Source: Candidatus Eiseniibacteriota bacterium (lineage in GTDB: Bacteria; Eisenbacteria; RBG-16-71-46; JABDJR01). From it: 64,000 nucleotides of DNA. The position numbers and the translations under genes are program-made. Positions 24,649-50,415 of this stretch are shown here, piece after piece. Position 1 is the stretch's first letter; the number at the start of each line of letters is the position of its first letter. The stretch is from the NCBI GenBank assembly GCA_963762255.1, contig CAVXKA010000001.1, forward strand, positions 1,376,001 to 1,440,000, in the 5' to 3' direction. The notes beneath the pieces were generated by a model. That model had not been told where the DNA came from. It searched no databases and saw only the letters and a program-made list of their open reading frames with translations.

Positions 24649-27600
24649 CTAGCGCCTCTTGGCCCGCTGCTTGACGGGACGCGGTCGCGACGCTGTCGCC
24701 ACCGCCGCGCGCTCGCCTGCGATCTGGAATGCGCCCGGCCAGCCACCGTGCTGCTCGATGACCTCGTCGATCTTCTGCATCAGACGAATAGTCTCAGCGA
24801 GGGCGACGACAATCTTCTGATAGTGGGCGATCTCTGCCTTGGAAAGCGTGCGGCCTTTGCGGTCCTTGAGCCACTTCTCGCACACTTGGTAGCCGCCGAC
24901 GTGGAAGTTCCAAACGTCCCCGGGCACGCCGCAGAACCCAATCGTGCCGGGCGTGGCGGGCTGGCCCTTCTTCGTCGCGGTGGCATCGAGCCAGACAGTG
25001 CCCTCCGACCAGCCGACCCGGCCGACTTCGGGGTTCTTCGGACCTGAGTAGTTAGTGATGAGGTGATCGAGCTTCGGTGAGTCCATCAGGTGTAGGGCCA
25101 CGAGTGTGGAGCCGAGTTGGATGAGCTCGCGGTTCAGCGCAGGAGACGAAGGCCGAGGCACCCTCGCGTAGTCCCGTTGGAGCTCCCCTTGAAACCGGCG
25201 GCGATACTCTGGCGAGAAGAGCACCGCGTAGATCGTGTAGAGCATCTCCTCCGCTGTGTGGACATCGAGGCGACTTGTCCAATCCGCATACACAGCAGGG
25301 GCAATGTTTGCATGCCCTCTATCTCCGGAGGCTGTCTTGAACAACGGCGTGTCATCTTGAACTCCAGTTAGGTACAGCGGGAACACCTGCGTGTTGCGAT
25401 CGTGAGTAGCGGCTTTGTATTCCACAAGCCCTCGGCAAACGAGCACGTTGTCATACGGTTTCCCGGTTACGCGACGGGTTGAAAGCAGAGCAAGGCTGCC
25501 AGCGAGCAGATGCTTCATGACCTCTTGGCGCGGTTCGCCAATGATCAACGGGTGATAGACGACGTACCGCATATCGAATGGGCGATAGAGGATCGGGCGA
25601 ATACACGACTCAGCATCTTTCAGCGTCGTCTCAGCACGTGCTCGATCGAAGTCAAAATGCGAGCTTGAACACAAACTGAACCGCTCTCCCAGACTTCGCC
25701 GCGACTCGGCCTTGTCGAAGAAAATCTCTAGGTTGTTGCGGAGCTCGGCCCGGGTGAACGCAATCGCCAGTGAGTCGTGCCGGGTCGCGAGGGCTGCGCC
25801 GTTGAATGGAAGTGGTCTTCCGCTCCGGATTCCGCCTGCAAAAACGTCCGGAAGTGAAAGCCACGACTCCCATGCAGCTGAGGTGTCAGTGAAGGTGGGC
25901 TGGAAGTAGCGCTGTGGGGCGATGGGAGACAGTCTCTCGAATGCAACCGTTCCCAATCTGCTGGACGCCAGCCACAGAGCCTTCTCATCACGAGATCCTC
26001 GCACAGCTGCAAGGTCCACGAGCCGCTCAGTCTTGCCAATCGTACTTCCCAAGAAGATGGCTACCCCTTGCTGAATATCGAAGACGTTCTGGTCGGCCGC
26101 TGTTGCGTCCACTCGACGGGAATTGCCTCCAAGATCCGTTAGTCGAATGACCCGGTAACACCCCATCAGGTCGGCGCGCATGTCCCGGAATAGGGGACCG
26201 TCTAGGTAGCTGTTGTCCGTGATCATTCCTAAGACATAGCTCCCCGCACTCTCCAAGATTGTGGAAGCGAGGCACATAAACTTGACGTAATCGTTGGATA
26301 GAGCTTGCCGTTGGATCTCTTCGGTCTTGATAGTCGTCTTGTAACGCTCCATCAAAGAGTCGATCCATTCACCCTGATTCTGGGAAAGCTTCGCGTAGGG
26401 CGGATTGCCGATCACCACAGTAAACCGCTGCTTCCGCTTGATCTCGTTGACCGCTTGCGCCTCGTGGGCGAGCGCCGGCAGAAAGTCTAAGGTAAGTTGT
26501 CTGCTGCTCGCAGGCTCCAGCGCGTTGGTCAGGTATACCCGCGCCCGCTCGTCGCTACCGAAACGGTAGCCCGTCTCGTAAAGCTTCAACCCAATTTTGA
26601 GATGCGCGATGGCGTAGGGGGCCATCAAGAGCTCGTAGCCGTGCAGGCGCGGTAGGAGGTGCCGGGGCACGTACTCGTTCCACAAGGCCTCAATCTTCTT
26701 ATCGCTTTGGCCATGGGCGTTCCAGTTGGCGAGCAGAGTCTTGTGGATGAGGTCGATGGCTTCGACTAGGAACGTACCCGTGCCGGTGGCGGGATCGAGG
26801 ATCTGGACGAAGGCATGGTCGGGGGAAACGCCCTCGGGGATCTTGATGTCCTTGTGGCGCCTAGCCATCTCCCCCCAGGTAGTGATATCGGCGAGTCCGT
26901 CGGTGAGGCCGAACTCGCTTCGCAGTAGCTCGTCCACCGAGCGCACGATGTAAGAGACCACCGGCCGCGGTGTGTAGAAGACGCCGCGTTGCATCCGCTT
27001 CTTAGCATCATATTCCTTGAGGAAGAGCTCGTAGAAGTGGATGACCGGGTCTTCCTGCGGGTTTCGGTCGCCGAAGTCGCGGACGACAGCTTCCATGTGA
27101 GTGTTCGGGTCGTCGAGCAGCTCAACAACCTCGTTCACACCCAGCTCGTCGAAGTCGATGCCCGGCCCACCTGCCTTGCCCCGCCGTCCGCCAACGTGGA
27201 GGAAGGTCTCCATCAGCTCCTTGAGGAACGGATTGGTCCGCATGTGGCCCGCGAAATCGTCTACCGTCTTCTTGTGGGGGTCTGCGATGCGGGCCGAGAG
27301 CAGGCCGTAGGCAATGGTCTGGGCATACATGTCAGCGAAGCCGCCGTCGTCGAGGTCGTGGATCAACGCCTCCTGGAAAGCCTTCCTCAGCTTGGTGACG
27401 GGGCCGTGCTCGGTCTCAATGGCGAGGACGGTGTGGATGCGGTCGCGGATCCTCCTTGCCAGCTTCGCCAACTCCACGGCCAGGGCCTTCGAGGTCTTGA
27501 TGACCTCATCGGGCCGTAGAGTGAAGGCCGATCGCCACTTCTCGCGCCACCGGTCGATGTTGGATTCGTCCTCTGGCCACGAAAGTTTCGTGGCAAGCTC

Positions 27601-28101
27601 GGTGGCTACGCCATCGAGATGAAGCGCGGTATCGCGATCGTTCCACCCGAGCACCTTCAGGATCGGGAGGTCGGCCTTGGCTCTGTCCTGCGAGAAATGC
27701 GCGAAGCTAATCTGGCGCTCATCGCCCTCGCCGTAATTGGAGACGAAGAGCAGGTCGTCGGCTGCCCAGGCGGTGCGCTCGGCGCTGTTGGCCGAGGCGC
27801 GTTTCTTGAGTGCAACCTGGCTTAGAATGCGGCGCAGCGCGACGATGGGAAGCTTCTTCGGTTCGAACTTGATGAAGAAGATGCCCCACGGCTGGCGGGG
27901 CGAGAGCGGGCGCAGCCGTTTGATCTCTTGGATCTTGGCGGCGCTCGCTGCGTCGATACCCAGCTCCTCTGGCGTGTACTCGAAGGTCAGCTCCTCGAAG
28001 CTCTCCTGACTGATTGGCCAGCCAATCTCGTCGCGTAAGTAGGCGATGAGTTGGTCAAACCGCTTGATTTTCGCGAGTACAGCGCGGTGGTCGGTCGGCA
28101 T
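24649..28101 (-). CDS. N6-adenine DNA methyltransferase with type ISP-like C-terminal specificity domain (type IIG/ISP-like RM protein)
   Basis: RGVFYTPRPVV, ILDPATGTGTF, VVIGNPPY, LYRPFD, WNFHVGGYQVCEKWLKDRKGR. Confidence 0.88.
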   Translation of the reverse strand: MPTDHRAVLAKIKRFDQLIAYLRDEIGWPISQESFEELTFEYTPEELGIDAASAAKIQEIKRLRPLSPRQPWGIFFIKFEPKKLPIVALRRILSQVALKKRASANSAERTAWAADDLLFVSNYGEGDERQISFAHFSQDRAKADLPILKVLGWNDRDTALHLDGVATELATKLSWPEDESNIDRWREKWRSAFTLRPDEVIKTSKALAVELAKLARRIRDRIHTVLAIETEHGPVTKLRKAFQEALIHDLDDGGFADMYAQTIAYGLLSARIADPHKKTVDDFAGHMRTNPFLKELMETFLHVGGRRGKAGGPGIDFDELGVNEVVELLDDPNTHMEAVVRDFGDRNPQEDPVIHFYELFLKEYDAKKRMQRGVFYTPRPVVSYIVRSVDELLRSEFGLTDGLADITTWGEMARRHKDIKIPEGVSPDHAFVQILDPATGTGTFLVEAIDLIHKTLLANWNAHGQSDKKIEALWNEYVPRHLLPRLHGYELLMAPYAIAHLKIGLKLYETGYRFGSDERARVYLTNALEPASSRQLTLDFLPALAHEAQAVNEIKRKQRFTVVIGNPPYAKLSQNQGEWIDSLMERYKTTIKTEEIQRQALSNDYVKFMCLASTILESAGSYVLGMITDNSYLDGPLFRDMRADLMGCYRVIRLTDLGGNSRRVDATAADQNVFDIQQGVAIFLGSTIGKTERLVDLAAVRGSRDEKALWLASSRLGTVAFERLSPIAPQRYFQPTFTDTSAAWESWLSLPDVFAGGIRSGRPLPFNGAALATRHDSLAIAFTRAELRNNLEIFFDKAESRRSLGERFSLCSSSHFDFDRARAETTLKDAESCIRPILYRPFDMRYVVYHPLIIGEPRQEVMKHLLAGSLALLSTRRVTGKPYDNVLVCRGLVEYKAATHDRNTQVFPLYLTGVQDDTPLFKTASGDRGHANIAPAVYADWTSRLDVHTAEEMLYTIYAVLFSPEYRRRFQGELQRDYARVPRPSSPALNRELIQLGSTLVALHLMDSPKLDHLITNYSGPKNPEVGRVGWSEGTVWLDATATKKGQPATPGTIGFCGVPGDVWNFHVGGYQVCEKWLKDRKGRTLSKAEIAHYQKIVVALAETIRLMQKIDEVIEQHGGWPGAFQIAGERAAVATASRPRPVKQRAKRR

Positions 28102-28105
28102 CTGT

Positions 28106-31100
28106 TCAGCCCTCGTTGAGTTCCATCCAACACTTGAGCGCCGGTTTCACGCCGACAGGGGCGTCGACGCGCTTCAGGTAGGTGTTCTTGATGTGCTTCT
28201 CGATCCTCCCTCGGAGCTCGACAAGGGTCAGCTCATCTGTGGTGCACTTTCGCGGGGTGTCGGGGTTGGAGCGGATGCCGGCGACGATCTCACCCGGCTC
28301 TTCGAGGATGGCGTCGCGGTCAAGGTCGTAGAGGTACCAGCGCGTCGTGCCGGCCGCTTCGGTGAACTCGCCTGCTTCCTTGTCGAGTGCGGGGAGCGCG
28401 TAACAGAAGAAGACCCCACGAGCGCCCTTGGTCGGGCGTTTCCGCCCGCTGAAGGTGGCGCCGGGCAGGCGCTTGAGACGCGCCTCCAGCTCGGGGTCGG
28501 CCTGGAGCAACGACTGGTACTCGAGGTGCATGTCCTCAACTGCTGTCTTGGTGCCTTCGTAGGCATGGTTGAACTCCCTCAGGGCGTCGTAGTCATCTTC
28601 TGGCGTAAGCAGCTTCTTGCCTTCGATGCCGAGGGTCTTGGAGATCAGTAGGGTCTTCTGCGTGACCTTGGTGTAGAGAGTCAGGATCACATTCAGATCC
28701 TCGGGCGGCAGGAAGTTCCAGAAGGTGACCTTGCCGCGGGACGGCGCAAGCTCCGGGTGATCGTCGAGGAGCCGCTTCTCGACCTCGGGATTCATGCGCC
28801 GGTCCACGCGGCCGATGCGCTGCATCAGACGCACGGGGTTCCAATGAATGTCGTAGTTGATCATCCGCGAGGCGTCCTGGAGGTTTAGGCCTTCGGAAAG
28901 GACATCGGTAGAGATTAGGATGCGGATCTCCCCGCGACCTTTCTCAGCAAGCGCCGCGGCAGAAATGCCGTTGTAGTAAGGGGAGAAGCACTGGATCACG
29001 TCGGCCCGGTTTCGCTTGGAGGCACTGTCGACCTGGGCGACACCATCGATGCCAGCCCCATCAAGCTGGCCCTTCAGGTAGCGGGCGGTGTCGGCGAACT
29101 CGGTGAAGATGAGAACCTTCTGACCAGCCAGTTCCTTGCTCTTGAGCAGGCGAATGAGCTTCTGCAACTTGTCGTCATGCTTGGGTTCGAACCTCCGGGC
29201 TTCCTCGAGAAAATGGACTAGTTGAGCCAAGTCCCGGAAGGTCTCAGTCAGCATTGCCGGGATGTCGTACTCCTCGCGGTTGAGCCTCTCTACGGTCGCA
29301 AGTATTTCCTGAGGAACAACGTCCTCGTCCTCGGACTCCTCTTCATCGCTGCCCCAGAGTTCCATCTGACGATGCACCGCATAGCCGAGAATCTCCGCGT
29401 TGTCGATCTTCCACTGCTCGAGCTTCCTCCTTTCGATGTCGGTCTCGCTGTGGATTATCAAGAAGGCGAGCAGCTTCTGTAGTAGCCGATCACAGGACAA
29501 CTCAAAGGCGGTGACGGAGCTCTCGAACCTCTTAAGAAAGTTGGTTCGGATCAGGCCCACGACCTGCTTCTGCCGGTTCTGCTCGAAGGAGTCAATATCC
29601 TTGTCCGGCCCCTTGTACCAGTAGAGCGGGTAGTACATGGCCAGGGTGAAGAGCGGGTGCTTTCGGGTGAAGGCGTTCTCGAACATGTCTAGCAGCCTGC
29701 CGTAGGTCTTGCGGATTGAGTACGCAGCGACCTGAGGTGGCCGGCGCTCAGGGAAGGCAGTGGTCCTTCCGGACTCTCGGATCTGGCTCTCCTGCGCGTA
29801 GGCGCGACTGCGCTGGACGACGAGGTGCCGGAAAATCTCATCCTTGGCCAGGATCTCCTGGGCCTCGGTCATGTTCTCAGCAACGTCGGTGAGGTCGTGC
29901 CCGAGGATCTGCCTGAGCGCCTTCTCCATGTTGTTGAAGCGCGCACTCAGGTTGTTCACTCCGAGGGTGCGGCCGAAGTACGCCTCGTCGCGCCGCGTGA
30001 AGAGTTCCGCCATGTGGCGGAAGTCGCTCAGACGGTTATTGATCGGTGTGGCGGTGAGCATGAAGAGCGTCTTGGGCCGCGCCGCGCAGTCGAGCAGGTC
30101 GTAGAGTTGGTAGTACCGGGAGGGGTCAGTCCCTTCGTCCGGGTCGCCCCGGCGTCCCGGATTGCGGAAGTGATGAGCCTCGTCGATGATCACGACATCG
30201 GCTAGATCCGCGATCCGCCGGAATCGCTCGGGGAAGTCCCCCTTGCGGCCGAGGTCTGTGTGGCTGAAGACCGCGAGGTTGCTGAAGTCGGCGTTCCCCC
30301 CGACGCCCCCGATGTGCGAGAGCCACTCGCGCAGGTGCGGCTCCCACACGCCCTCCTTGGTCGCCTTGGGAGCAAAGAGCACCACGCGCTTGCCTTCGTG
30401 CAGCACCAGCCGCTCGATCAGCATCAAGCCCACGAAGGTCTTGCCGAGACCGACACCGTCGCAAAGGAAGGCACCGCCGTGCTGGCGCGCGATCTTCATC
30501 AGTGCCCAGTAGGCCTCCTTCTGATAGCGATCGAGCCTGGGAAACATCTTTGAGCGGGTCTCGTCCCACTCGGTTGCTGTCAGCTCGTGCCCTCGGAAGT
30601 ACTCCTGGAGCGCCTTGGCGTAGATGTCGAACGGGGTATAGAGCTGGGTGTGGCGCGAAATGGTGTCGATGACGGCGTCGGTCACCTCGCTGGCATCGAT
30701 CCAGTGTGCCTCGAACCACTCTTGGAGCTGGGCGACCTCGCGAGCACTCTGGACCTGAATGTTGAGCTCGATGTTCTTGGTGAGGCCGGGAGCGGTGAAG
30801 TTGCTCGAGCCCACCAACGCCTGCGAACCGACCACTTCGAGCTTGGCGTGCGTGATATAGGCTTTCGCATGGAACTTCTCACGGTCGTAAACGCGGCACT
30901 CGATCTGCCTCGATTGGAGTGCCTTGAGGATCGCCGGAACGCCGTGGAGGAAGGGGTTGGTTTCCTTGTCGGCCTCGATGCTCCCGTCGAGGATCTCTAC
31001 GGCGCGCGAGCGCACGGCATCGAGGAGCGCCTTGCGGGTGCGATGCGTCATCTCGGCGCCCATCAGAATCCGGATCTTCTCCAGCGGCTGCCACTGTCCG

Positions 31101-31255
31101 TCGAGGGCAAGCAGCGCACCGATTTCGAAGTAGCCCGTCGCGATATCGAACCCCTTGGCGATGCCGGACCACTCCTTGAGGTAGCGGAGCCCGGTCCACC
31201 CGGAGACGCTGTTGTCGACGATGAAAAGGTCGCGGCCTTTGGAGTCAGTGGTCAT
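28106..31255 (-). CDS. PLD-nuclease domain fused to SNF2-family helicase
   Basis: FHAKAY...VGSSNFT (PLD HKD-like), DGVGLGKT, IIDEAHHFRN, LTATPINN, STDVLSEGLNLQ, NYDIHWNPVRLMQRIGRVDR. Confidence 0.9.
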   Translation of the reverse strand: MTTDSKGRDLFIVDNSVSGWTGLRYLKEWSGIAKGFDIATGYFEIGALLALDGQWQPLEKIRILMGAEMTHRTRKALLDAVRSRAVEILDGSIEADKETNPFLHGVPAILKALQSRQIECRVYDREKFHAKAYITHAKLEVVGSQALVGSSNFTAPGLTKNIELNIQVQSAREVAQLQEWFEAHWIDASEVTDAVIDTISRHTQLYTPFDIYAKALQEYFRGHELTATEWDETRSKMFPRLDRYQKEAYWALMKIARQHGGAFLCDGVGLGKTFVGLMLIERLVLHEGKRVVLFAPKATKEGVWEPHLREWLSHIGGVGGNADFSNLAVFSHTDLGRKGDFPERFRRIADLADVVIIDEAHHFRNPGRRGDPDEGTDPSRYYQLYDLLDCAARPKTLFMLTATPINNRLSDFRHMAELFTRRDEAYFGRTLGVNNLSARFNNMEKALRQILGHDLTDVAENMTEAQEILAKDEIFRHLVVQRSRAYAQESQIRESGRTTAFPERRPPQVAAYSIRKTYGRLLDMFENAFTRKHPLFTLAMYYPLYWYKGPDKDIDSFEQNRQKQVVGLIRTNFLKRFESSVTAFELSCDRLLQKLLAFLIIHSETDIERRKLEQWKIDNAEILGYAVHRQMELWGSDEEESEDEDVVPQEILATVERLNREEYDIPAMLTETFRDLAQLVHFLEEARRFEPKHDDKLQKLIRLLKSKELAGQKVLIFTEFADTARYLKGQLDGAGIDGVAQVDSASKRNRADVIQCFSPYYNGISAAALAEKGRGEIRILISTDVLSEGLNLQDASRMINYDIHWNPVRLMQRIGRVDRRMNPEVEKRLLDDHPELAPSRGKVTFWNFLPPEDLNVILTLYTKVTQKTLLISKTLGIEGKKLLTPEDDYDALREFNHAYEGTKTAVEDMHLEYQSLLQADPELEARLKRLPGATFSGRKRPTKGARGVFFCYALPALDKEAGEFTEAAGTTRWYLYDLDRDAILEEPGEIVAGIRSNPDTPRKCTTDELTLVELRGRIEKHIKNTYLKRVDAPVGVKPALKCWMELNEG

Positions 31256-32172: not shown

Positions 32173-32757
32173 TCAGCAGACGAGATCCCGCACCCTGCCA
32201 AACAGCTCCTCATCGTCGACGTTGGTGTAGATGGTGGTTGTGAGCGGCGACGCGTGCCTCGCGAACCGTTGGGCGAGGAAGAGGTCGTGGGACATCCGGT
32301 AGACAGAAGTTATTGCGGCGTGTCGAAGTGCATGGAACCCGTAGAAGCGGTCGAACCCCGCGCGCTCCTGCCAGGTCTTGAAGGTCATCTGGACGCGGCG
32401 TTTGGAGATGCGGTGGCCGGACTGATTGCAGAAGAGGGGCGACGAAGGCGTCAACGACTCACCCGACCTCACCTTGTACCCCCAGGACCTCACGAGCTTC
32501 GGCCCCAGGGCGTCCGGCAGGAACACGTCGCCGGCGCGGCCGCCCTTGGCGATCTCTTTGCGCAGTCGAATCCGTGAGCGCGGCCGACCGTCCGACGTGA
32601 ACACATCGCCCACGTTCAGGCCGACGATCTCCGACAAGCGAAGTCCGGTTCCCAGCGCCAGCGAAAAGATCAGGTGGTCGCGGGGATGCGAGGCCGAAAC
32701 CGCAAGCAGGGATTGCTGTTCAGAGCGGGTCAGGGTCGCGGGACTCAGGTAGGGCAT
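32173..32757 (-). CDS. Minimal tyrosine recombinase (catalytic domain only)
   Basis: 194 aa; TGLRLSE (R), AKGG (K), HALRH (H-x-x-R), ARH and TTTIY (H, Y); no N-terminal core-binding domain. Confidence 0.9.
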   Translation of the reverse strand: MPYLSPATLTRSEQQSLLAVSASHPRDHLIFSLALGTGLRLSEIVGLNVGDVFTSDGRPRSRIRLRKEIAKGGRAGDVFLPDALGPKLVRSWGYKVRSGESLTPSSPLFCNQSGHRISKRRVQMTFKTWQERAGFDRFYGFHALRHAAITSVYRMSHDLFLAQRFARHASPLTTTIYTNVDDEELFGRVRDLVC

Positions 32758-32773
32758 CGGTTACCTCCGAGGA

Positions 32774-32814
32774 CATTGGGCAGCCGAGACGCGACGGGGT
32801 CAAGGGGAACCGGG
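32774..32814. repeat. 41-bp repeat, copy A (upstream region of the recombinase)
   Basis: 37/41 identical to 35373-35413 by manual alignment. Confidence 0.85.
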
Positions 32815-32925
32815 GGGTTGATGACTCCATCCCGCACTTGATTCACACCAAGCGCCGGAGTAGCTTGAACCTCTCGGCACGCTTCAAGTCTGCTGTTCAC
32901 GGGTGAGAGACCGCGTTCCTCAACG

Positions 32926-34215
32926 ATGGAGACTGCCATGTCCCGCAGGCTGATTCCTTCTGCCGCCGGAAGTACTTTCTTGCGTCTGCCCCAGTGCTTC
33001 ACGCTGGCCGCGCTAATAGTCTTGCCGCTTGGTTGCGGCGGCGACGAACCCAGCAAGCCGGTTGTGGTCGCCGTGGACCCGGCTACGGCATCCGTGAGAG
33101 TGGGCCGTCCGCAACAGTTCACGGCCACCGTAACGGGTGCTGAAAACGCGGCAGTGGTGTGGTCCTTGGATGTGGATACCATGGGCGGGACGATCAGCGC
33201 ATCGGGCGTGTACCTCGCGCCTATCGGCGTACCAAGCCCGGCGACGACGACGGTACGAGCTACAAGTCAGGCAGACCCCACAAAGAGCGGGACGGCAACG
33301 GTGACCGTTGTTCGTGCCGGACCCGAGCCCTCCGAGTTCGTACATGTTCGCGCGGGCCGGTTCACGATGGGTGATGGCAGCCCCAGTTCCGGCTGCGGGA
33401 TCGAGACGCAGGACGTTACCCTAACGCACGACTTCTACATCGGCCCCACCGAGGTGACGAATCAGCAGTACTTGGAGATGGTCCAGTGGGCCTACGACCA
33501 GGGGTACGTGGCTGCCGGGGGGGGCGTAGTATATGACCGACTGGATTGGAGAACGGCGAAAGAAGCCCCACTCTTGTACATGGCGGCCGTGGGGTCGGAG
33601 ATCACCTTCTCCGATGGAGTGTTCTCGCTTCGGGACGCTGGTCACGGGATCAACCCGGATCACCCGGTGAAGGAAGTGACCTGGTATGGGGCGGTGGCGT
33701 ACTGCGACTGGTTGAGTCTCGAGGAGGGTCTGTGGCGCGCCTACGATCACACCACCTGGATTTGTAATAGCGGTGATCCCTATTCGGCGAGGGGTTTCCG
33801 GTTGCCGACGGAGGCGGAGTGGGAGTACGTGGCGCAGTACGACGACGAGCGGATCTACCCATGGGGGAATGAATCGCCGAGCTGCGATCGGGCGAACTAC
33901 TCCAGCTGCAACACCGGCTGGACTGCGCCGGTGGGCACGCAGGCCGCCGGGCCCGAGAAGGTGATCGGAGGCAAGGGGCTGTACGACATGGCGGGGAACG
34001 TGTGGGAGTGGTGTAACGACTGGCACGATTGCTTAGGCACGGCGCCGATGGAGAACCCGCCAGGGCCTTCAGCGGGGACCTTTCACGTCTTTCGCGGAGG
34101 GTCGTGGGGCAGCGATGTCCAGTACCTCCCGCGCGCGTACCGGTACCAATTCGGCAACCCACGCTTCAGGAATGCCAACACCGGGTTTCGTGTCGCCAGA
34201 ACCGTGAATCCCTGA
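32926..34215 (+). CDS. Lipoprotein with Ig-like and FGE-sulfatase (SUMF1/CLec-fold) domains
   Basis: Lipobox PLGC; Ig-like QQFTATVTG...VVWS; FTMG, TEVTNQQY, RLPTEAEWEY, GLYDMAGNVWEW, RGGSW, GFRVAR. Confidence 0.88.
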   Translation: METAMSRRLIPSAAGSTFLRLPQCFTLAALIVLPLGCGGDEPSKPVVVAVDPATASVRVGRPQQFTATVTGAENAAVVWSLDVDTMGGTISASGVYLAPIGVPSPATTTVRATSQADPTKSGTATVTVVRAGPEPSEFVHVRAGRFTMGDGSPSSGCGIETQDVTLTHDFYIGPTEVTNQQYLEMVQWAYDQGYVAAGGGVVYDRLDWRTAKEAPLLYMAAVGSEITFSDGVFSLRDAGHGINPDHPVKEVTWYGAVAYCDWLSLEEGLWRAYDHTTWICNSGDPYSARGFRLPTEAEWEYVAQYDDERIYPWGNESPSCDRANYSSCNTGWTAPVGTQAAGPEKVIGGKGLYDMAGNVWEWCNDWHDCLGTAPMENPPGPSAGTFHVFRGGSWGSDVQYLPRAYRYQFGNPRFRNANTGFRVARTVNP

Positions 34216-40135: not shown

Positions 40136-41323
40136 ATGCCTTCCGGAAGCAAGGATTACTACAAGACTCTGCAGGTTGATCCACATGCGGAGTCTGAAGT
40201 CATTGAAGCTGCATTCAAGCGGCTCGCTCACAAGTACCACCCGGACAAGAGCCGCGCATCCGACGCGACCGCTCGCATGCAGGAACTGATAGCAGCATAT
40301 GAAGTGCTTCGCGACCCCATCAAGCGCAGGCAGTATGACCAGGGGAGAGTGTCCCGATCCTCAGGTCTCGAAGGGGATTTCGAGGAAGAACGACGAAGGC
40401 GCGAAGAAGCGGAGCGATCTGACCGTCGTGCTCAGGGGGAGGCGCGAGAGGCCCGTCGCCGGGCTGCAGAGGCGCAGCGGATGCGCGAGGAAGCTGAAGC
40501 CGCGCGGTGGCGAGCTCAAGCCGAAGCCGAAGCCGCAAGACGATATGCGGAAGGGGAGAACCGCAAGCGCAGGGAGGCAGAGACGGCGGGACACGGCGCG
40601 GAGGGTGAGCGGCCGAGGGAGGGGGAGAGCAAGGCCGCGGGGCACGACGCCCAAGATGTATTGCGGGAAGGTACATGGCCTGACGAGAGACAACGGCACG
40701 CCAAGGGGACGCAACCATCCGAATCCACCGGTCAGGACCGTGAGCGAGATGGATTGGGATCCAAGGCGCCCAAGCAAGACAATCGCGCCGGGGTCAGGAA
40801 CGGAGAGGCCACGGCTCCTCGTAGCGCGAAGCCCGGTGTCCGGCACGGGCGCGTCTCCCAGGGACGGTCCTGGATGGTGCCGGTGCTCCTTACTCTGATA
40901 GTTGCGTCGGCAATCTACTATTTCAGCTGGCAATACGTGACGCGAAGGCTTGCTGCGGAAGAGGTCCGGGTGGCGCAAGACCTCCACTCCGCCACATCGC
41001 CCATCGGAAACGACGGAGACAGCGATATTGCGTCCTTCTATGCGTTCGATTCGCCGCCCCGGCCTGCCAGAAAGCCCGCGCCGGAGTATCCCGAGGTAGC
41101 CCTGGTGACGGGGGCCGAGGGGACGGTATGGGTCGAGGTGACTATCGACGAGAATGGGCGAGTTATCGCCGCTAGGGTGGTCAGGTCGACTGCGATTCAG
41201 GTTCTGAACGAAGCCGCCCGTGAGGCAGCTATGAAGTGGCTCTTCACCGCGGCCAAGCTGCACGGTGTGCCGGTTAAGTCCCGCATCAGCATTCCGTTCG
41301 AGTTTTCCGTCCGCGACCGATAG
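40136..41323 (+). CDS. J-domain - coiled coil - TM - TonB C-terminal domain fusion
   Basis: DYYKTLQV...KYHPDK...AYEVLRDP (DnaJ, HPD intact); R/E-rich coil; TM WMVPVLLTLIVASAIYYF; PEYPEVA..GAEGTVWVEVTIDENGRV...IPFEF (TonB_C). Confidence 0.85.
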   Translation: MPSGSKDYYKTLQVDPHAESEVIEAAFKRLAHKYHPDKSRASDATARMQELIAAYEVLRDPIKRRQYDQGRVSRSSGLEGDFEEERRRREEAERSDRRAQGEAREARRRAAEAQRMREEAEAARWRAQAEAEAARRYAEGENRKRREAETAGHGAEGERPREGESKAAGHDAQDVLREGTWPDERQRHAKGTQPSESTGQDRERDGLGSKAPKQDNRAGVRNGEATAPRSAKPGVRHGRVSQGRSWMVPVLLTLIVASAIYYFSWQYVTRRLAAEEVRVAQDLHSATSPIGNDGDSDIASFYAFDSPPRPARKPAPEYPEVALVTGAEGTVWVEVTIDENGRVIAARVVRSTAIQVLNEAAREAAMKWLFTAAKLHGVPVKSRISIPFEFSVRDR

Positions 41324-41866
41324 TCCCTCGTGCTCATGCCCGCAGAGCCGACTCACTTTTCTTTCCCGCGCCGGAGGGGACTCAACCACGAACGGTGTCA
41401 CCTCGTGCAGGTGGGGTACTCCTGATCCTCCTGGTTGGTGCACGCGGTGCTCGCTGGCCCGGAAAGATTGGACCTGTGGAGGCACTGGGTGCTCTGGCGG
41501 GACTCAGACCTCCGTGCCTTTCGCCCTTCCGCCTCATCTTCGCGATGCTCCTCCCCGGCCCGCCTCGGCACTGGGGGGTGGGCATCTCGAAGGGCTTTCT
41601 CGTCATGGGACGAGGAAGTTGTAAACGCCGGTCGAAAACCGCGGCGTCGCATGCCGCCGACCGTCAGGTTCGTGCCCCTTCGAAACCAGTGGCGAAGGTA
41701 TAGTTGGCTGTGGAGCAAGGAGTTAGATCCGTTTGCCATGTAAGTGAGGCGCGTGGTGTACCAGCGTGCATCCTCTGCTGCAGCTCACCGCCGGCCGCCT
41801 ACAGCAGACTGGTTCATCGCCATTCGGCCTCATTGGGGTACACTGCGGCCATCCCCGTATGGAGCA

Positions 41867-44800
41867 ATGATGGCCGCGGATCTCATTCCATGGATCAGAT
41901 ACTGGCGTCGTGATGAAACGGTAGTTCCACTGCCCGCCAGCGGGTTTCTCTCACAAGAGATGCTCGCTCAAGCCGCGAGTACGGGTGCCGTCTCGACGCT
42001 TCGAGAGTTGACGGATGTTCCCTGCTTGATCTTGTTGGGTGAACCCGGGCTCGGCAAGACGCGGCTTATCCAACAGGAGGAGCGGGATCTCGCGGCCATG
42101 CTCGTGCCTGCGGACGAATCGCGGTACCTAGACCTCGGCGCCTATAGCAACGAGGCACGACTATGGGATGCCCTCGCGCAAGGCACGCGAACGGACCCAG
42201 CGCCCCATGTTCTGCATCTCTTTCTCGACAGCTTTGACGAGTGCCAGTCGCGCATCCCGAACCTTGGTCGACTAGTCGTTCAGTTTCTGCGTGACCATCG
42301 AACCTACCTCCCGCGGCTGCGACTCCGGATCGCCTCTCGGACATTGGACTGGCCCAGGACCTTGGAGGAGGATCTGCGAGTCCTTTGGGACCGCGGGCAG
42401 GTGGGTCTTTATCATCTCCTCCCGCTGACGCAGGAAGACGTGCGGCTCGCGGCCGAGGCGGCAAGCCTCAACCCTAACGCCTTCCTTCAGGAGATCCAGG
42501 CCTTCCGGGCAGAACCGCTTGCCGCGACTCCTCTCACGCTGAACATGCTCCTCAACGTCTATTGCCAGACCGGAACGCTCGGTGGGAGTCAGGCGGAGTT
42601 GTTTGAGAATGGCTGCCTGCATCTTCTCGAGGAATCGCACCGGGCAGGAGGGGTTGATCGCAGTCCGTTGGCGACACAAGACCGATTGGAGATAGCGACT
42701 CGGATCGGGGCCATGCTCCTGTTCTGTGGAAGGGTGGCGGTCCAGATGGGTGCGGCATCCATCGATTCCGGCAGTGAGGACTTGCGGCTCACCGAAATCC
42801 AGGGCGGGCATGAAGAAGCCGATGGTCGGAAGGTTGCCGTGACGCCCGAAGCGGTCGCGGACGCCCTCAAGTCCGGCTTGTTCGTCGGCGTGGATGACCG
42901 GCGCGTGGTTGCCCAACACAAGTCATTCACCGAGTTCCTGGCCGCCCGGTTCCTCACCAAGCGCGGGTTGAAACCCGAGGAGGCGCTCGGTTGCGTCACC
43001 TGCAAGGTGGGGAAGAAGCACACCTATGTGGTTCCGCAACTGGCCCCCGTGGCGTCGTGGCTTGCGAATCTGGACGGAGCGATACTGGACAGACTCGTCG
43101 ACCTTGAGCCTCAAGTTGTTCTCCAGAGTGACAGTAGGCTCCTTGACGACAATGAGCGGGCCAGGCTTGTCGACGCGTTGTTGGGGCAGCTCAAGGCCGG
43201 TGAGCGCGAGCAGTTGCACCCCGAGATGGGGATGTATCTTCAACGCTTGCGGCATCCTGGTCTGGCGGAACAACTCCGTCCGACGATTGTGGATCACGAC
43301 AATCAGTGGCCAGCTCGCGCAGCAGCCATCGAGATTGCCGAAGCGTGTGTCGCGCATAATCTCCAGGACGCCCTCGTCACCGTGGCCCTTGGGAAAGATG
43401 AGATCCAGCATCTGCGTCTGCTCGCGACCCATGCTCTGGCCACCGTCGGGGATGAGAGGCATCTAGTCAGGCTGCTCCCGCTGGCCACCGGGGGCGCTGG
43501 CGATGATCCCCTGGATGATCTGCGCGCCAGAGCACTGCGTACCCTGCGTGGAAGGGGGTTGCTCCGAGGAGATGATCTCTTCGTTTGTATCACGCTTCCA
43601 AGCCGCCCGCAGCTCCTCGGCTCCTACGCGTTCTACCTCATGCACGACTTGCCGGAGAGTCTTGAGGCGGCAGAGTTGCCAGCCGCGTTGAGATGGGCAA
43701 TAGGGATGAGTGACAGGGCGAAACTGCCCCATGCTATTGGCGAACTGATCCAGACGATTCTCCAACGCGCTGCTGATTCTCCCGCGAGCCTTGAATCGGA
43801 GATGGCTCTCGTCGTTTCCAACTGCATCAAGAATGGGACCGAACTGAAGCTCTCAATCGAAGGGCCTCGACGGCGGGCGGTTCTTGAGGATGCCATCCAC
43901 AGGGTACCCGGCAGGGGGGCCGACTTCTACTACCTCAGGCGCCTGCTAACCGACGAAGATACTGGCTGGATCTCAGACTGCGCGGCGAACGTCGTGACCG
44001 GGGACGAGGCGGACAAGTGGTTCGTGCTGGTCCGCTCGCTCATGCGCGACGGGGAGGCAAGGTCATCTGACGAAGTGATCCAGCTTGTTGCGACCAATCC
44101 GCTAATGGCGGCGAAGTTCAGGGCATGGGTGGAGCCTGTCGAGCTTGAATCGCCAGAGGCAAAACGGCGCCGCGCTGACTACCTTGAGCTTCTGAATTGG
44201 GAGCGCGACTCCAAGGCAGAGGAACCAAGGCAGGCAACGCTCGAGGAAGTGGATGCTTGTCTGGCCCGGGTCCTGGATCGACAGGAATCAGAGGGATTCA
44301 ACGCGCTGTTGCGCCTGCTCGAACTTCAAGATGACGGGGGGACTCCAGGACCGATTCCTGAACTCGATCCGGAGGAAATGGACGGGTGGCATCAACTGGA
44401 TGACGATCGGCGAGAGCGGGTTAGGTTGGCCGCCGGTGCCTACCTACGCAAGGTAAGTCTGGCGCCGAGCGATTGGGATCAAGGAGTCGTCCCGATCGGT
44501 GTGGATGGCTACCGTGCGCTAGTCCTCTTAGGAAAGGACCCCAGGACACTTGGGGGCTTACCCGAGAGGGTGTGGACAGCTTGGTGTCCCGTCATCCTGC
44601 GCCTGTCGCCGCTCGGCATCGGCCGCGGCGAGGCGCACACCCGAGTCCTTCAAGGGGTCGCGAGCGTTGCGAGAGAGGCGTTCGGTGAGGTCGTGCGGGG
44701 AATGGTCATGCGAGCGCGTGGCCAAGGTCGCGATGTCACCCAGCTCTTGGTGCTCAAGTCATGCTGGAACGAAGAGTTGGGTCAGGTTTTGCTCGACCTC

Positions 44801-45886
44801 GCCCACGATAAGGAGACCCACGGTCAGACGCTGCGCAGGGTGCTGGGCATCCTGCTTGAGAATGGGTATCCCAGAGCTGAAGACATTGCGATCAAGGAAT
44901 TGAAGTACTGGCGATCGAAGGACCCTGTGCCCAGGTCGATTGTGGCTGCTGCTGCTCTCCTGATGGACGGCGGGGGTCAAGCTTGGGGCGCAGTGATTCA
45001 GGTCGTGAAGGCTCACGCGAATTGGGGAAAGAAACTGATGGCGTTCCTGTCGCAGAGCGCCTCCGGTCTCGACGTGGCTGTACCAGCCGACATGGATGAG
45101 GAGTCCCTCGCGGATCTCTACTTGTGGTTGGGGCGGCACTTTGCGCAGGGGGATGAACCAGTTGCAGAAGGAGTCTCCGCCGATCCTTCAAGGATTGCTA
45201 TTAGCCACTTCCGCGATCGGCTCTTGCGGAGCCTCCAGACCCAAGGTACAGAGGCGAGCGTGGAGGAGCTGGGGCGAATCGCAGATGAACTTCCTGATCA
45301 CGAATGGGTGAGACTCATGGGAGTCGAGGCAAGGAGAATGGTGGCCGCCCGCGCTTGGGCCCCCCTCGCACCTGAAGCGGTTCTACGAATTGGCCGGAGA
45401 GGGTCTGATTCCGCGCTGGAGTCCGCCACTTGCCCGGTCGGCACACGCGCTAGTCTCCCGCTAGCTGGGTCTCCGTGCTGGGAGCTCCCGGGGCTAAAGT
45501 GGTCTGAGATCAGCATGGACTTCCTTGACGGTGAGACGGTCAGGATTCGCGCCCAGCACCTGGACTTGCGGGCGACGTTCGCTGAGATGGGATTCAAGGA
45601 TGGTCGCAGTGCCCGCCCGAACGCCAAGTGGCTCCTCCTGCAGGAGATCGCTGACAATAACGGATTCCTGCCCGGCGGGCGGGGGAAGAACCGGGCGGCG
45701 GAGAGACAGCGGAAGCACAAGCTAACCGAGCTACTAATGCAGTATTTCCGTGCCGAAGGGGATCCATTTGGGCTCTACGTCCGGAATCAAGGCTGGGAAG
45801 TTCAATTCAAAATCCGGCCCGAAGCGGGGAGGGGTGATTACTCACCCCCCCGGCGGATCCTTCCGAGCGAGATTGATGAAGATTGA
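41867..45886 (+). CDS. Large NACHT/STAND NTPase with helical repeats and a putative C-terminal DNA-binding domain
   Basis: LILLGEPGLGKT (Walker A), LFLDSFDE (Walker B), LRIASR, PLTLNML, HKSFTEFLAA; long HEAT-like region; distinct ~130-aa C-terminal domain. Confidence 0.8.
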   Translation: MMAADLIPWIRYWRRDETVVPLPASGFLSQEMLAQAASTGAVSTLRELTDVPCLILLGEPGLGKTRLIQQEERDLAAMLVPADESRYLDLGAYSNEARLWDALAQGTRTDPAPHVLHLFLDSFDECQSRIPNLGRLVVQFLRDHRTYLPRLRLRIASRTLDWPRTLEEDLRVLWDRGQVGLYHLLPLTQEDVRLAAEAASLNPNAFLQEIQAFRAEPLAATPLTLNMLLNVYCQTGTLGGSQAELFENGCLHLLEESHRAGGVDRSPLATQDRLEIATRIGAMLLFCGRVAVQMGAASIDSGSEDLRLTEIQGGHEEADGRKVAVTPEAVADALKSGLFVGVDDRRVVAQHKSFTEFLAARFLTKRGLKPEEALGCVTCKVGKKHTYVVPQLAPVASWLANLDGAILDRLVDLEPQVVLQSDSRLLDDNERARLVDALLGQLKAGEREQLHPEMGMYLQRLRHPGLAEQLRPTIVDHDNQWPARAAAIEIAEACVAHNLQDALVTVALGKDEIQHLRLLATHALATVGDERHLVRLLPLATGGAGDDPLDDLRARALRTLRGRGLLRGDDLFVCITLPSRPQLLGSYAFYLMHDLPESLEAAELPAALRWAIGMSDRAKLPHAIGELIQTILQRAADSPASLESEMALVVSNCIKNGTELKLSIEGPRRRAVLEDAIHRVPGRGADFYYLRRLLTDEDTGWISDCAANVVTGDEADKWFVLVRSLMRDGEARSSDEVIQLVATNPLMAAKFRAWVEPVELESPEAKRRRADYLELLNWERDSKAEEPRQATLEEVDACLARVLDRQESEGFNALLRLLELQDDGGTPGPIPELDPEEMDGWHQLDDDRRERVRLAAGAYLRKVSLAPSDWDQGVVPIGVDGYRALVLLGKDPRTLGGLPERVWTAWCPVILRLSPLGIGRGEAHTRVLQGVASVAREAFGEVVRGMVMRARGQGRDVTQLLVLKSCWNEELGQVLLDLAHDKETHGQTLRRVLGILLENGYPRAEDIAIKELKYWRSKDPVPRSIVAAAALLMDGGGQAWGAVIQVVKAHANWGKKLMAFLSQSASGLDVAVPADMDEESLADLYLWLGRHFAQGDEPVAEGVSADPSRIAISHFRDRLLRSLQTQGTEASVEELGRIADELPDHEWVRLMGVEARRMVAARAWAPLAPEAVLRIGRRGSDSALESATCPVGTRASLPLAGSPCWELPGLKWSEISMDFLDGETVRIRAQHLDLRATFAEMGFKDGRSARPNAKWLLLQEIADNNGFLPGGRGKNRAAERQRKHKLTELLMQYFRAEGDPFGLYVRNQGWEVQFKIRPEAGRGDYSPPRRILPSEIDED

Positions 45887-45978
45887 GTTGATTGCTGCTC
45901 AAGTACTTATGAATTCACTCTGATCTTTTTCTCCGCCCGAAACCCGCCCAGCGTGACTTCTAACCGCCTCCCTATGAA

Positions 45979-46317
45979 ATGACCGATGAACGGTTCGGGA
46001 AGTCAACCAGCCTCGACAGCAAGCGCGCAAAGCTCACGCTGAGCCGCTGCGTCGGGCATCTGGATGAGGTAGGAGACAACTGGCCCCAGGTTCAGCTGAT
46101 GCTGACGAAGCTAGTTGCTCGTGCAGCGCTGGCGAGGTGCTCCCCGAATCGAGAGTGTTCATCCGAGGCCGAAGCGGCACATTCCGGGCCGTCCGCGGCC
46201 GCCGCGGCGGTGACGGGCGCTCCACCCGCAAGCGTGGGCGGCCCGGGATCAATTGGAGAATCGGAGCATGAACGAACTCTTGAACAGCGCCCTCGCGCAC
46301 TTGAACCTGACCGGTAA
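45979..46317 (+). CDS. Small hypothetical protein upstream of the primase
   Basis: ORF in the position where satellite excisionase/regulatory genes usually lie; no motif recognised. Confidence 0.35.
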   Translation: MTDERFGKSTSLDSKRAKLTLSRCVGHLDEVGDNWPQVQLMLTKLVARAALARCSPNRECSSEAEAAHSGPSAAAAAVTGAPPASVGGPGSIGESEHERTLEQRPRALEPDR

Positions 46318-48675
46318 GAGAACCCCTGACGGTCGGCACATTGCCTGGTGCCCATTCCATCCCGATGGGCAGGGGACGCCGCCGCATCAGGCGAATCTCC
46401 TGGTCTCCGACCGGGGCTTCATTTGCCACGCATGCGGGGCGCAAGGAAGTCTTCGGGACTTAGCGGGGCGGTTGGAGATTCCGACCAGCGCCGCAGAAGT
46501 GGTCTACGTCTACCAGGACGCTGACGGCAATGACAAGTTCCGGATCGTCCGGCGGGCCGGCAAGAAGTTCTCAGTTCAACATCGCAACAAGAGCGGTGGA
46601 TGGAGCAAGGGCCTCGGGCCTGCCGTCCGTGTCATCTACCGGCTGCCCGAGATCCTGAAGTCCGAGTCCAACGTCCCGGTCTTCATTGTTGAGGGCGAGA
46701 AGGACGCTGACCGACTCGCTGCGAATGGCCGCATCGCCACCACCAACCCCTTTGGTGCCGGCAAGTGGCGGCCTGAGTACAACGAGCCGCTGCGGGATCG
46801 CAACGTGATCATCATCCCCGACAACGATGAGGCGGGTCGAAACCACGCCATAGTCGTCGCGCAGTCCCTCACTGGGGTGGCCAAGTCCATCAAGGTCGTT
46901 GCGTTGCCAGACCTCGACGAGAAAGGTGACGTTTCGGACTGGCTGAATGCTGGTCACACGATCGAGGACCTCGACCGCGTGGTCGAGGCATCTCCCGTCT
47001 GGACAGCGGACGAAGGAGAAGAAGCTTCGCCGATGGGGGTCCGCGACGGCGACCCGAAAGACCTCGTGCGGACGCTCCTGGACGAGGGCATCGAGCTGTT
47101 CCACGACCAATTCAAGGTTCCCCACGCCCGGGTTCCCGTGGATGGACATTGGGAGAACTGCGCTCTGGGGGATTTCGGCTTCAAGCGGTGGGCGGCTCTC
47201 CGATACTACGAACGCACCGGGAAGATGCTGCAACGAGACAAGTTCAGCGCAGCCCTGCTCGTGCTCGAGGCCAAGGCTGCCAACGAAGCGCCCCAGCGAG
47301 AACTTCACACTCGCGTAGCCAACTTCGAAGGCGCGATCTGGTACGACTTGTCCGATCGGGACTGGAGATGCGTGCGCATTGCGCCGGATGGTTGGGAAGT
47401 CGTCTCTGACCCGCCGATCCTCTTCCGGCGGTGGCCTCACCAGCAGCCGCAGGTCGAGCCTGTCCGCGGTGGATCCCTCGGGAACATCTTCAACTTCTTG
47501 CCCCTGTCGCGAGCGGAGTGGGAGACGTTGCTTCTGCCCTACCTGGTGGCCTGTCTGGTGCCTGACATCCCGCATCCAATCCTAGCTACGTTTGGCCCGA
47601 ACGGCGCCGGGAAGAGCACGATCAGTCGCATCTTCAAGATCTTGATCGACCCGTCCACGCTGGCAACTCTGGCCTTTGGAACTGACCAAGCGGGACTCGT
47701 TCAGCAACTCTCTCACCACTACTACGCGTGCTATGACAACGTGTCGGCGCTCCCGGATTGGGCGAGCGACTTCCTGTGCCGAGCATCTACTGGAGAGGGA
47801 TTCACGAAGCGCGGTCTGTACACGAACGACGAGGACTTCATCTACGCCTACCGGCGCTGCGCGAGTCTCAACGGGCTGAACCTCGTCGTTCTGAAGCCCG
47901 ACCTGCTGGATCGAACGATCCTGGTGCACGTGGAAGGGATCGGAAAGACGGAACGGCGGGAGGAGAAGGAGTTCTGGACGCAATTCGAGAGCGTGAGAGC
48001 CCGGCTTCTGGGAGCGGTCTTCGACGCGCTGAGCGTCGCCATGAAGGTCAAGACTGCTCAGAAGCACAAGGATCTTCCCCGCATGGCCGACTTCGCGGCG
48101 TGGGGAGCCGCTGCCGCCGAAGCCATCGGCATTGGCAGCCAGACCTTCCTGGACCACTACGCTCGCGACGAGGGCGCCCGCATCGAGGAGCTGATCTGCG
48201 AGGACCCTCTGGCACTGGCGATCGTTGAACTCGTGCGGGCTCGGGGGTCATGGAGTGGCCTCGCGAGCGAGCTTCTCAAGGAAGTGAAGAGGTGGGGCCA
48301 CATGGAGAACGCCGACCAGCACGATGCCCGTTGGCCCAAGACCCCCAATCGCCTGTCCGCCCGACTGAACGAACTTCAGGCCAGTCTGGGCAAGGCCGGG
48401 GTGGAGTACCGCGGTCGTCGGACCAACCAGGGGAAGTGGATCGATCTTCGCCCCCTCGACGTGCCCGCTAGCCCAGGAACGCCCGGCAAGGACGGTGACG
48501 GTCTTCGTGGGGGATCGTCACCTCGAACTGCGGGGGGATCGTCACTCCGTAACAAGTTGACTGGCAACGTGTTAAGCGGTAACTGTGGTTTGAGTGACGA
48601 TGATGACGATCCTTCTGCCCCCACTGGTGGCTCGGCTTCACGCAGCGACTCACCCCGGATGGGGGCCTTGGGGAA

Positions 48676-48679
<4 letters not shown>
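46268..48679 (+). CDS. Primase-helicase replication protein (Zn finger + TOPRIM + P-loop)
   Basis: CPFH...CHAC Zn finger; VFIVEGEKDAD and IIPDNDEAG (TOPRIM); GDVSDWL; GPNGAGKST, YDNVS, DLLDRT (ATPase). Confidence 0.88.
48491..48613. repeat. Iteron-like CGTCAC cluster, right (putative origin)
   Basis: GGGGGATCGTCAC at 48509-48521 and 48533-48545; inverted GTGACGAT (48594) and GATGACGATCC (48602); GACGGTGACGG (48491); AT-richer spacer 48550-48592. Confidence 0.65.

Positions 48680-50415
<1,736 letters not shown>

Follow-up and report, generated by a model that had tools for sequence, protein, structure and literature searches.

The DNA analysed here, hereafter the window, is a stretch of 64,000 nucleotides from a Candidatus Eiseniibacteriota bacterium (assembly GCA_963762255.1, contig CAVXKA010000001.1, positions 1,376,001 to 1,440,000). 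It carries a gene for a large STAND/NACHT protein whose C-terminal part differs from that of its relatives, followed on the same strand by a small open reading frame (ORF), a primase-like gene and a gene for a large serine recombinase. Positions are those of the window unless a locus name precedes them, and the features are collected in Table 1. An initial annotation, made from the sequence alone, had proposed that this protein is an immune-type receptor with a DNA-binding output, and the primase and integrase genes that it placed downstream are present.

A STAND/NACHT gene with an exchanged C-terminus

The open frame runs from 41744 to 45886 on the forward strand (1380 codons), with a probable start at the ATG at 41870, which has a GGAG 6 nt upstream and gives a product of 1338 aa, of which the database protein P0002 is a copy. 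The initial annotation had covered 41867..45975; the forward ORF is real, its end lies at 45886, and 41867 corresponds to an ATG one codon before the one at 41870. Only 56 residues precede the NTPase, which leaves no space for an N-terminal effector, as the initial annotation had supposed. Also, both Walker motifs are intact, the protein matching the patterns of Walker A (GxxxxGK[ST]) and of the NACHT-type Walker B (hhhhD[GS]xDE).

Pfam gives only sub-threshold matches to NACHT, AAA_22, NPHP3_N and HEAT_2, the gathering score not being reached (12 bits vs 26.7 for NACHT and 14.7 vs 27 for AAA_22), and membership of the STAND/NACHT class rests on NCBIfam and on the homologs. In NCBIfam, the model of EruA (Erebus, NF058535) is matched at E 9.1e-49 by residues 40-768, on profile positions 13-728 of 1318, and that of HyoA (Hypnos) at E 1.5e-35, well under its curated cut-off. 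The EruA score of 166.5 bits compares with an equivalog cut-off of 1000, the profile being partially covered, and PHROGs gives no match for the protein. Judged from these comparisons, the protein is a distant relative of the Erebus and Hypnos antiphage NACHT proteins, which together with bNACHT64 are named Avs10 in PMC13581612 (Nature 2026; also bioRxiv 10.64898/2026.01.04.697583). According to the same paper, Avs10 senses the phage major capsid protein, which disfavors the terminase or portal protein that had been put forward as trigger by analogy with other Avs proteins.

A word-index search retrieved 21 database relatives with 27-32% identity to the STAND protein, and EruA-like proteins are ~30% identical to it over residues 1-1190. 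The BLAST alignments of all 21 relatives stop at or before residue 1191 of the query, ending at residues 1163-1191 in 18 of them, the remaining three being shorter or partial matches. When the stretches beyond the aligned part were cut from 19 relatives and compared mutually, 18 of these tails were found to be similar to each other (E down to 1e-148) and to share invariant E..D..ExK residues, and none of the 19 resembled the tail of the STAND protein. The nineteenth tail (P0021) is a C-terminal metallophosphatase instead, and another relative (P0019) has a kinase at the N-terminus; as these two cases show, the Erebus/Avs10-like lineage does swap effectors. Moreover, the EruA model is matched through to its end by P0011, P0003 and P0005, and therefore true EruA also has the nuclease-like domain.

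The predicted structure of one of these tails (from locus L054; predicted local distance difference test [pLDDT] 87.0, predicted template modelling score [pTM] 0.86) was compared by exhaustive structure alignment, and the top rows were restriction endonucleases and other PD-(D/E)xK nucleases: PaqCI (Z 7.3, root-mean-square deviation [rmsd] 3.5, 124 residues aligned), BamHI (6.9), BstYI (6.7) and CdiA-CT (6.5), together with McrC, Can2, NgoMIV and LlaBIII. For this tail, no Foldseek match reached E<=1e-3 (the top row, BglII, has 0.013), and a PDB sequence search with a profile of the relatives gave nothing useful. Because these Z values lie under the stand-out level, the nuclease case rests on motif and fold together, from which the tails of the relatives are predicted to be a restriction-endonuclease-like (PD-(D/E)xK-like) domain. 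That NACHT homologs may end in a nuclease had been raised beforehand, and 18 of the 19 tails examined are consistent with it.

This domain with its E..D..ExK residues, usual in the lineage, is absent from the STAND protein, and a tblastn search of all frames of the window detected no remnant of it (best E ~0.2). Since proteins related to the NACHT part have a nuclease-like domain at their end, the effector has been swapped: at the domain boundary, a linker and a basic domain of ~110 aa take the place of the nuclease. In comparison with EruA and HyoA, the protein keeps the N-terminal NACHT NTPase without an N-terminal effector, the long helical sensor and the sequence homology, and differs in the replaced C-terminal PD-(D/E)xK-like domain and in a score far under the family cut-off.

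This fusion is also seen outside the assembly. Soil-metagenome contigs cover 44917-46258 at ~97% identity, and one of them, of 467 nt and with 13 differences, spans 45221-45687 and thus the junction; no indels relative to the window are reported in these contigs. The 18 changed codons comprise 11 synonymous and 7 non-synonymous changes, counts that are small and taken from low-depth contigs of a run possibly from the same habitat as the assembly. Within the tail, 13 codons are changed (7 synonymous and 6 non-synonymous), and three of the six non-synonymous changes lie in the core domain, at variable positions. Contigs of run X2 cover 45458-45719 only and hence are uninformative on the fusion. 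By its sequence, the metagenome variant speaks against an assembly chimera and, with less weight, against decay.

The C-terminal domain, its predicted fold and its distribution

The last 154 residues of the protein (45422-45883) were scored against 1.84 billion representative proteins, and 1793 of these matched at E<=1e-3 (245 at E<=1e-10), so that the C-terminal domain delimited in the initial annotation is real. Among the best 150 of the 1793, all but the query are 117-727 aa long and nearly all have the domain at or near the C-terminus; such carriers normally belong to integrative elements. The best match, P0024 (291 aa, 43% identity), aligns from residue 4 of the tail; therefore, the two homologies meet within a few residues of 45422.

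None of 40 scanned carriers of the domain has a Pfam match at E<=1e-3, Trans_reg_C included, and their N-termini are very varied; Trans_reg_C is not matched by the STAND protein either, at E<=1. NCBIfam gives no match for the tail and 19 carriers (20 sequences), PHROGs gives none for the tail and, among the carriers, two weak matches only, at E 0.0016 and 0.009, both with families whose function is unknown, none of 10 domain clusters checked bears an informative name, and the domain profile finds nothing among PDB sequences. Across these searches, the domain marks a widespread family that no model of Pfam, NCBIfam or PHROGs describes, and a shared C-terminal domain behind varied, Pfam-less N-termini is the layout of one-component regulators.

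The OmpR-type fold consists of a beta-sheet, three helices including the recognition helix, and a C-terminal hairpin wing. In a model of the domain, built on a 67-row alignment (pLDDT 85.2, core >90, pTM 0.73), three strands precede a helix at 68-78; after a short strand come a long helix at 88-109 and, at the C-terminus, a hairpin region of three strands. In an exhaustive search of ~48,000 PDB representatives, with families assigned by entry titles, OmpR/PhoB-type DNA-binding domains fill the first 25 rows with Z 5.6-3.8, values below 8, for which the aligner cautions that a match may reflect a common arrangement only. The best rows are BaeR (Z 5.6, rmsd 3.4, 84 residues aligned), AdeR (5.4) and CadC (5.3), followed by VanR, PrrA, VicR, KdpE, PhoP and ToxR, with OmpR at rank 27 and AfsR and EmbR further down (Z 3.1-3.2). 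The alignments with OmpR/PhoB domains span 77-90 residues at rmsd 3.1-4.4. The modelled ~100-aa domain aligns throughout with the OmpR/PhoB (Trans_reg_C) type, having an N-terminal beta-sheet, helices and a C-terminal hairpin, and it differs from this type in the absence of a Pfam sequence match, the modest Z scores, the two long helices and the varied N-termini, which are not receiver domains. Because of the modest Z scores and because one classic helix is not evident, the domain is called here winged-helix-like and not a member of Trans_reg_C.

The aligned members are basic in 62 of 67 cases, with a mean net charge of +5.1, and conserved K/R residues occur at positions 62, 95-98, 106, 126 and 128. 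Those at 95-98 and 106 lie on the long helix and those at 126 and 128 on the terminal hairpin, in agreement with the OmpR/PhoB comparison, where the basic residues fall on a helix and the hairpin. No conserved His or Cys exists across the 67 members, nor any conserved catalytic-type residue, and the earlier statement that the domain lacks a nuclease motif holds. Together, the basic charge, the conserved K/R residues and the absence of conserved His or Cys fit nucleic-acid binding and argue against an enzyme.

The domain is sporadic, being present in 5 of 206 genomes of the phylum of the window (its own genome included) and in 10 of 401, 15 of 401 and 2 of 401 genomes of three other phyla. The genome of the window has one copy, and the highest number elsewhere is five per genome. 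In that connection, genome G673 has five match rows, among them two pairs of rows with identical scores, which suggests recently duplicated elements; genome G711 has four, two of them in one frame and possibly a single split copy.

A recurrent feature is the gene position. As the initial annotation had asked of related elements, the domain does recur upstream of primases: in 12 of 16 other domain loci, a primase or replicative helicase gene lies downstream on the same strand within ~8 kb, which amounts to about nine independent cases because several loci are near-duplicates. The downstream genes encode a Prim-Pol/PriCT_1 protein at L006, an AAA_25 protein at L007, a CHC2 zinc finger protein at L009, a Prim-Pol 35% identical to the L006 protein at L030, a RecD-like helicase and a DnaG-like primase at L042-L046 (by PDB sequence matches at L042 and by clustering at the others), a primase 44-52% identical to that of the window at L048 and L049, and a RecD-like family member at L050. 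The remaining four do not count: L008 has a serine recombinase with unknown genes next to it, at L047 the host FeoB follows, L051 gives a weak helicase match only, and L037 is a 2.6-kb contig. At L030, L007 and L009, a single small ORF separates the domain gene from the replication gene, as in the window, and the locus of P0024, the closest relative of the tail, repeats the order of the window with the domain gene, a homologous small ORF and a primase. In L042-type loci, the primase is 4-7 kb off and some intervening genes are on the opposite strand.

Also, a conserved two-gene pair is found in 11 loci, in which the gene for a 388-410-aa protein of an unknown family precedes that for a ~345-aa protein that ends in the C-terminal domain. 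It lies at L042:1972-4189, with a short overlap of the genes, and likewise at L007, L037 and L043-L050, and is absent from the window; the 388-410-aa partner is 40-97% identical between loci and has no PDB sequence match.

Downstream region and island setting

Three CCGCC repeats follow the STAND gene at 45933, 45944 and 45964, the positions given for them at the outset, with spacings of 11 and 20 nt that would suit tandem winged-helix binding. Within 260 nt after the stop codon, one CCGCC triple with 10-12/20-23 nt spacing is found, vs a shuffle mean of 0.013 in a post hoc test, and CCGCC/GGCGG occurs 453 times in the window; as possible regulatory sites, these repeats are weak leads only. 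They are flanked by two copies of TATGAAWTSAC, 65 nt apart, a pattern derived from those same two copies.

At other loci, C-terminal domain genes are followed directly by dyad arrays with a GAAATTTC core and complementary flanks, in 2-3 copies ~65-70 nt apart. These were spotted by eye and counted afterwards in a zone that begins 50 nt ahead of the stop codon of the domain gene and reaches 400 nt past it: 23 NGAAATTTCN-type dyads fall in the 7.2 kb near stop codons vs 69 in the remaining 260 kb, a density 12-fold that elsewhere in the same loci, and all 8 exact GAAATTTC-type copies fall within the zone. No link is visible between the sequence of the C-terminal domain and the type of dyad site.

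The small ORF of the window has a counterpart at L030, and the 84-nt block that ends at the start of the primase gene is common to the window and L030, though their primases differ in family. The RNA fold of this block is no better than that of shuffles (z -0.79), and the block was not found in viral contigs. No terminator-like site was found between the STAND stop codon and the primase gene.

Table 1 Features of the locus and dyad arrays of related loci
Feature	Position	Strand	Basis or remark
Chimeric STAND/NACHT protein gene (1338 aa, database copy P0002)	41870..45886	+	ORF, NCBIfam EruA/HyoA
Erebus/Avs10-like part (NTPase and helical sensor, residues 1-1184)	41870..45421	+	homology to 21 relatives
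Walker A GEPGLGKT, residues 57-64	42038..42061	+	intact motif
Walker B LFLDSFDE, residues 117-124	42218..42241	+	intact motif
Junction and low-confidence linker, tail residues 1-26	45422..45499	+	alignment of relatives ends ~45424; pLDDT 54-55
~110-aa basic C-terminal domain, predicted winged-helix-like, tail residues 27-133	45500..45820	+	profile search, model
Two TATGAAWTSAC copies, candidate operators	45908-45918 and 45973-45983	+	flank CCGCC repeats; 65 nt apart
112-aa ORF between STAND and primase genes	45979..46317	+	40% identity over 72 aa to L030 counterpart
84-nt GC-rich block, ends at GGAG and ATG of primase gene	46187..46270	+	80% identical to L030 6110-6193
Primase-like gene	46268..48679	+	PHROG DNA primase 2e-20, primase/helicase 3e-19
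Large serine recombinase (integrase)	48676..50382	+	Pfam Resolvase, Recombinase, Zn_ribbon_recom; phrog_95 integrase 5.9e-70
tRNA-Met, right island end	50339..50415	-	overlapped by 3' end of recombinase ORF
Dyad arrays in other loci	L006:2660-2800; L042:4208-4344; L009:1194-1293; L051:11205-11309; others		

The primase-like gene has no Pfam match and no PDB sequence match. The 3' end of the recombinase ORF overlaps the opposite-strand tRNA-Met by 44 nt, and neither an att repeat nor any direct repeat of the tRNA region was detected in the rest of the window. Between ~24 and 46 kb, the G+C content drops from ~0.65-0.70 to ~0.60. Of 19 ORFs scanned in 23.8-50.9 kb, none has a structural PHROG, and no capsid gene was seen in the scanned parts of the window. 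A serine recombinase and a primase-like gene at a tRNA-Met, with no virion gene among the ORFs scanned, is the gene content expected of a phage satellite or integrative mobilisable island, and the island is a candidate for such an element.

A TerS-like/TerL pair lies at 21298-23462 (TerL at 21861-23462), with no portal or capsid gene after TerL. The initial annotation had treated TerL as the element's own; its G+C content at third codon positions (GC3) is 0.86, that of the pair being 0.81-0.86, like the enolase gene outside the island, and the two next ORFs have 0.56-0.59. Because its GC3 is host-like, TerL may not belong to the island. The forward-strand run of methyltransferase, ParB-like, TerS-like and TerL genes (19448-23462) ends abruptly at the low-GC island.

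Other genes of the island touch on defence or mobility. On the reverse strand at 24649-31255, a Type ISP-like methylase/specificity gene (1150 aa) stands beside a PLD-nuclease/helicase gene (1049 aa), and the two are probably a restriction-type defence pair; the island also holds two HNH genes. At 32173-34215, an ORF of 194 aa, short for an integrase and possibly truncated, has a tyrosine-integrase catalytic domain and adjoins a gene for a 429-aa FGE-sulfatase-domain protein. According to PMC13581612, FGE-sulfatase domains occur as sensors of STAND proteins; in the window, the domain is on a separate gene. Directly upstream of the STAND gene, at 40136-41323 on the forward strand, lies a gene for a protein with DnaJ and TonB_C domains, and for the bacterial NACHT protein bNACHT25, work cited in the same paper has phage sensed through DnaJ.

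Proposed function and competing explanations

Avs proteins, the antiviral STANDs, are known as sensors with a killing or arresting effect on the cell, and the STAND transcription factors MalT and AfsR belong to other clades; in AfsR, the DNA-binding domain is N-terminal. The gene described here is a chimera of an Avs10-type NACHT part and the putative output domain of a mobile-element regulator-type gene. By architecture, it is like MalT, AfsR and GutR, with a STAND NTPase, a sensor and a (predicted) DNA-binding domain in one polypeptide, and the winged helix of AfsR is of the OmpR type, AfsR and EmbR being among the fold matches of the domain in the window. Unlike in AfsR, the DNA-binding-like domain is C-terminal, and the NTPase and sensor are from an antiphage lineage. 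The gene is also like the master regulators of phage satellites, such as Stl of the phage-inducible chromosomal islands, in joining a (predicted) DNA-binding module to a variable sensor, in its location on a putative integrative island, beside genes for the integrase and the primase, and in the proposed response to a phage protein. In PMC13581612, defence STAND clades are described as interspersed with non-defence ones, for example transcription regulators, and MalT, AfsR/SARP and GutR are named as non-immune STANDs. A literature search, with the original Erebus/Hypnos description outside its reach, found no description of an Avs-type STAND whose output is DNA binding.

What the comparisons show directly is the architecture of the protein, its exchanged effector, a resemblance in fold, a domain that recurs at one gene position and a fusion that persists in a second sequence variant; that the domain binds DNA, at which sites, on what trigger and in which direction it regulates is what we infer. 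The most likely function, proposed tentatively, would be that of a DNA-binding switch, triggered by phage, which acts on the neighboring small ORF, primase gene and recombinase gene. A phage protein would bind the helical sensor, the NTPase would drive oligomerization in an Avs-like manner, and the oligomer would gather several winged-helix domains. The gathered domains would then bind repeated sites in the 380-nt stretch between the STAND and primase genes, and this binding would switch the small-ORF/primase/serine-recombinase operon, the island replicating or excising when phage is present. In a broader form, which is possible though doubtful, an Avs-type receptor would have been turned into a phage-sensing transcription or replication switch of a mobile island, detecting a helper or competitor phage. 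Its output domain would come from a large, unannotated family of winged-helix one-component regulators (the 1793 representatives above), a family that would head the replication modules of serine-recombinase elements, near dyad operator arrays.

Several observations weigh against such a switch. The fusion is a singleton, which is its main weakness, since a one-off fusion could be an accident: among the best 150 of the 1793 matches, no carrier of STAND size (>727 aa) other than the protein itself is present, and 45 non-self match rows in 1408 other genomes include none in a frame of >618 aa. Word-index protein searches for long carriers also returned the protein only; as they missed P0024 as well, these negatives are weak evidence. 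The fold scores are modest, Foldseek gives nothing at E<=1e-3 in PDB or BFVD for the domain model, and of the three helices expected in OmpR-type domains the model shows only two, both long. None of 16 loci related through the primase of the window carries the domain; these share only the primase's N-terminal portion (residues ~20-290), with no synteny. As for the candidate sites, the window has 11 three-copy CCGCC clusters in all, L030, the closest related locus, does not conserve the CCGCC repeats, and the window lacks the GAAATTTC palindrome. A search of 41300-46400 for sigma-70-like promoters found none. Finally, the island contains clear defence genes, so a defensive role stays plausible.

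In that role, which we regard as somewhat unlikely, the protein would still act in defence, with the DNA-binding domain as a new type of effector that, for example, clamps phage or host DNA after oligomerization; in a variant, the domain would tether the sensor to DNA and work with the neighboring nucleases. This would agree with the Type ISP-like, PLD-helicase and HNH genes of the island and with the effector swaps of P0019 and P0021, and the members of the Erebus/Hypnos/Avs10 lineage, to which the NACHT part belongs, defend against phages according to PMC13581612. However, the domain is not joined elsewhere to recognizable defence sensors, all 40 scanned carriers being without a Pfam domain, PADLOC gives nothing for the STAND protein, and the domain lacks conserved residues of catalytic type. 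Moreover, it regularly sits upstream of replication genes, at 12 of 16 loci, which suits the housekeeping of an element better than a toxic effector.

An accident is unlikely on balance, although the fusion is unique in everything searched (the best 150 of the 1793 domain matches and the genome searches) and a search of 30 related genomes did not find the NACHT part. Here, a recent deletion would have joined an Erebus-like gene in frame to the 3' end of a regulator gene of the element, with no function or a residual one, and the break does fall exactly where the homology of one family ends and that of the other begins. Nevertheless, the 4-kb frame is open with its motifs intact, and the ~3%-diverged metagenome variant keeps the junction without indels and has synonymous changes in the majority, on the small counts given above. 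Quite improbable is a domain acting as an origin-binding or replisome-recruiting module, by which the fusion would couple phage sensing to initiation of island replication. The adjoining primase and helicase genes, the dyad arrays that follow the domain genes and the nucleotide-conserved 84-nt block before the primase gene would suit such a module; yet the fold matches are transcription-factor domains, N-termini as varied as these are rare among initiators, and in L042-type loci the primase is distant, with some of the genes in between on the other strand.

If the proposed phage-triggered DNA-binding switch is correct, the gene would be a natural case in which an immune receptor has become a gene switch by rewiring, and it would offer a testable way for an integrative island to sense phage infection. 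Moreover, the conserved gene position and the candidate operators make the domain family an easy target for characterization.

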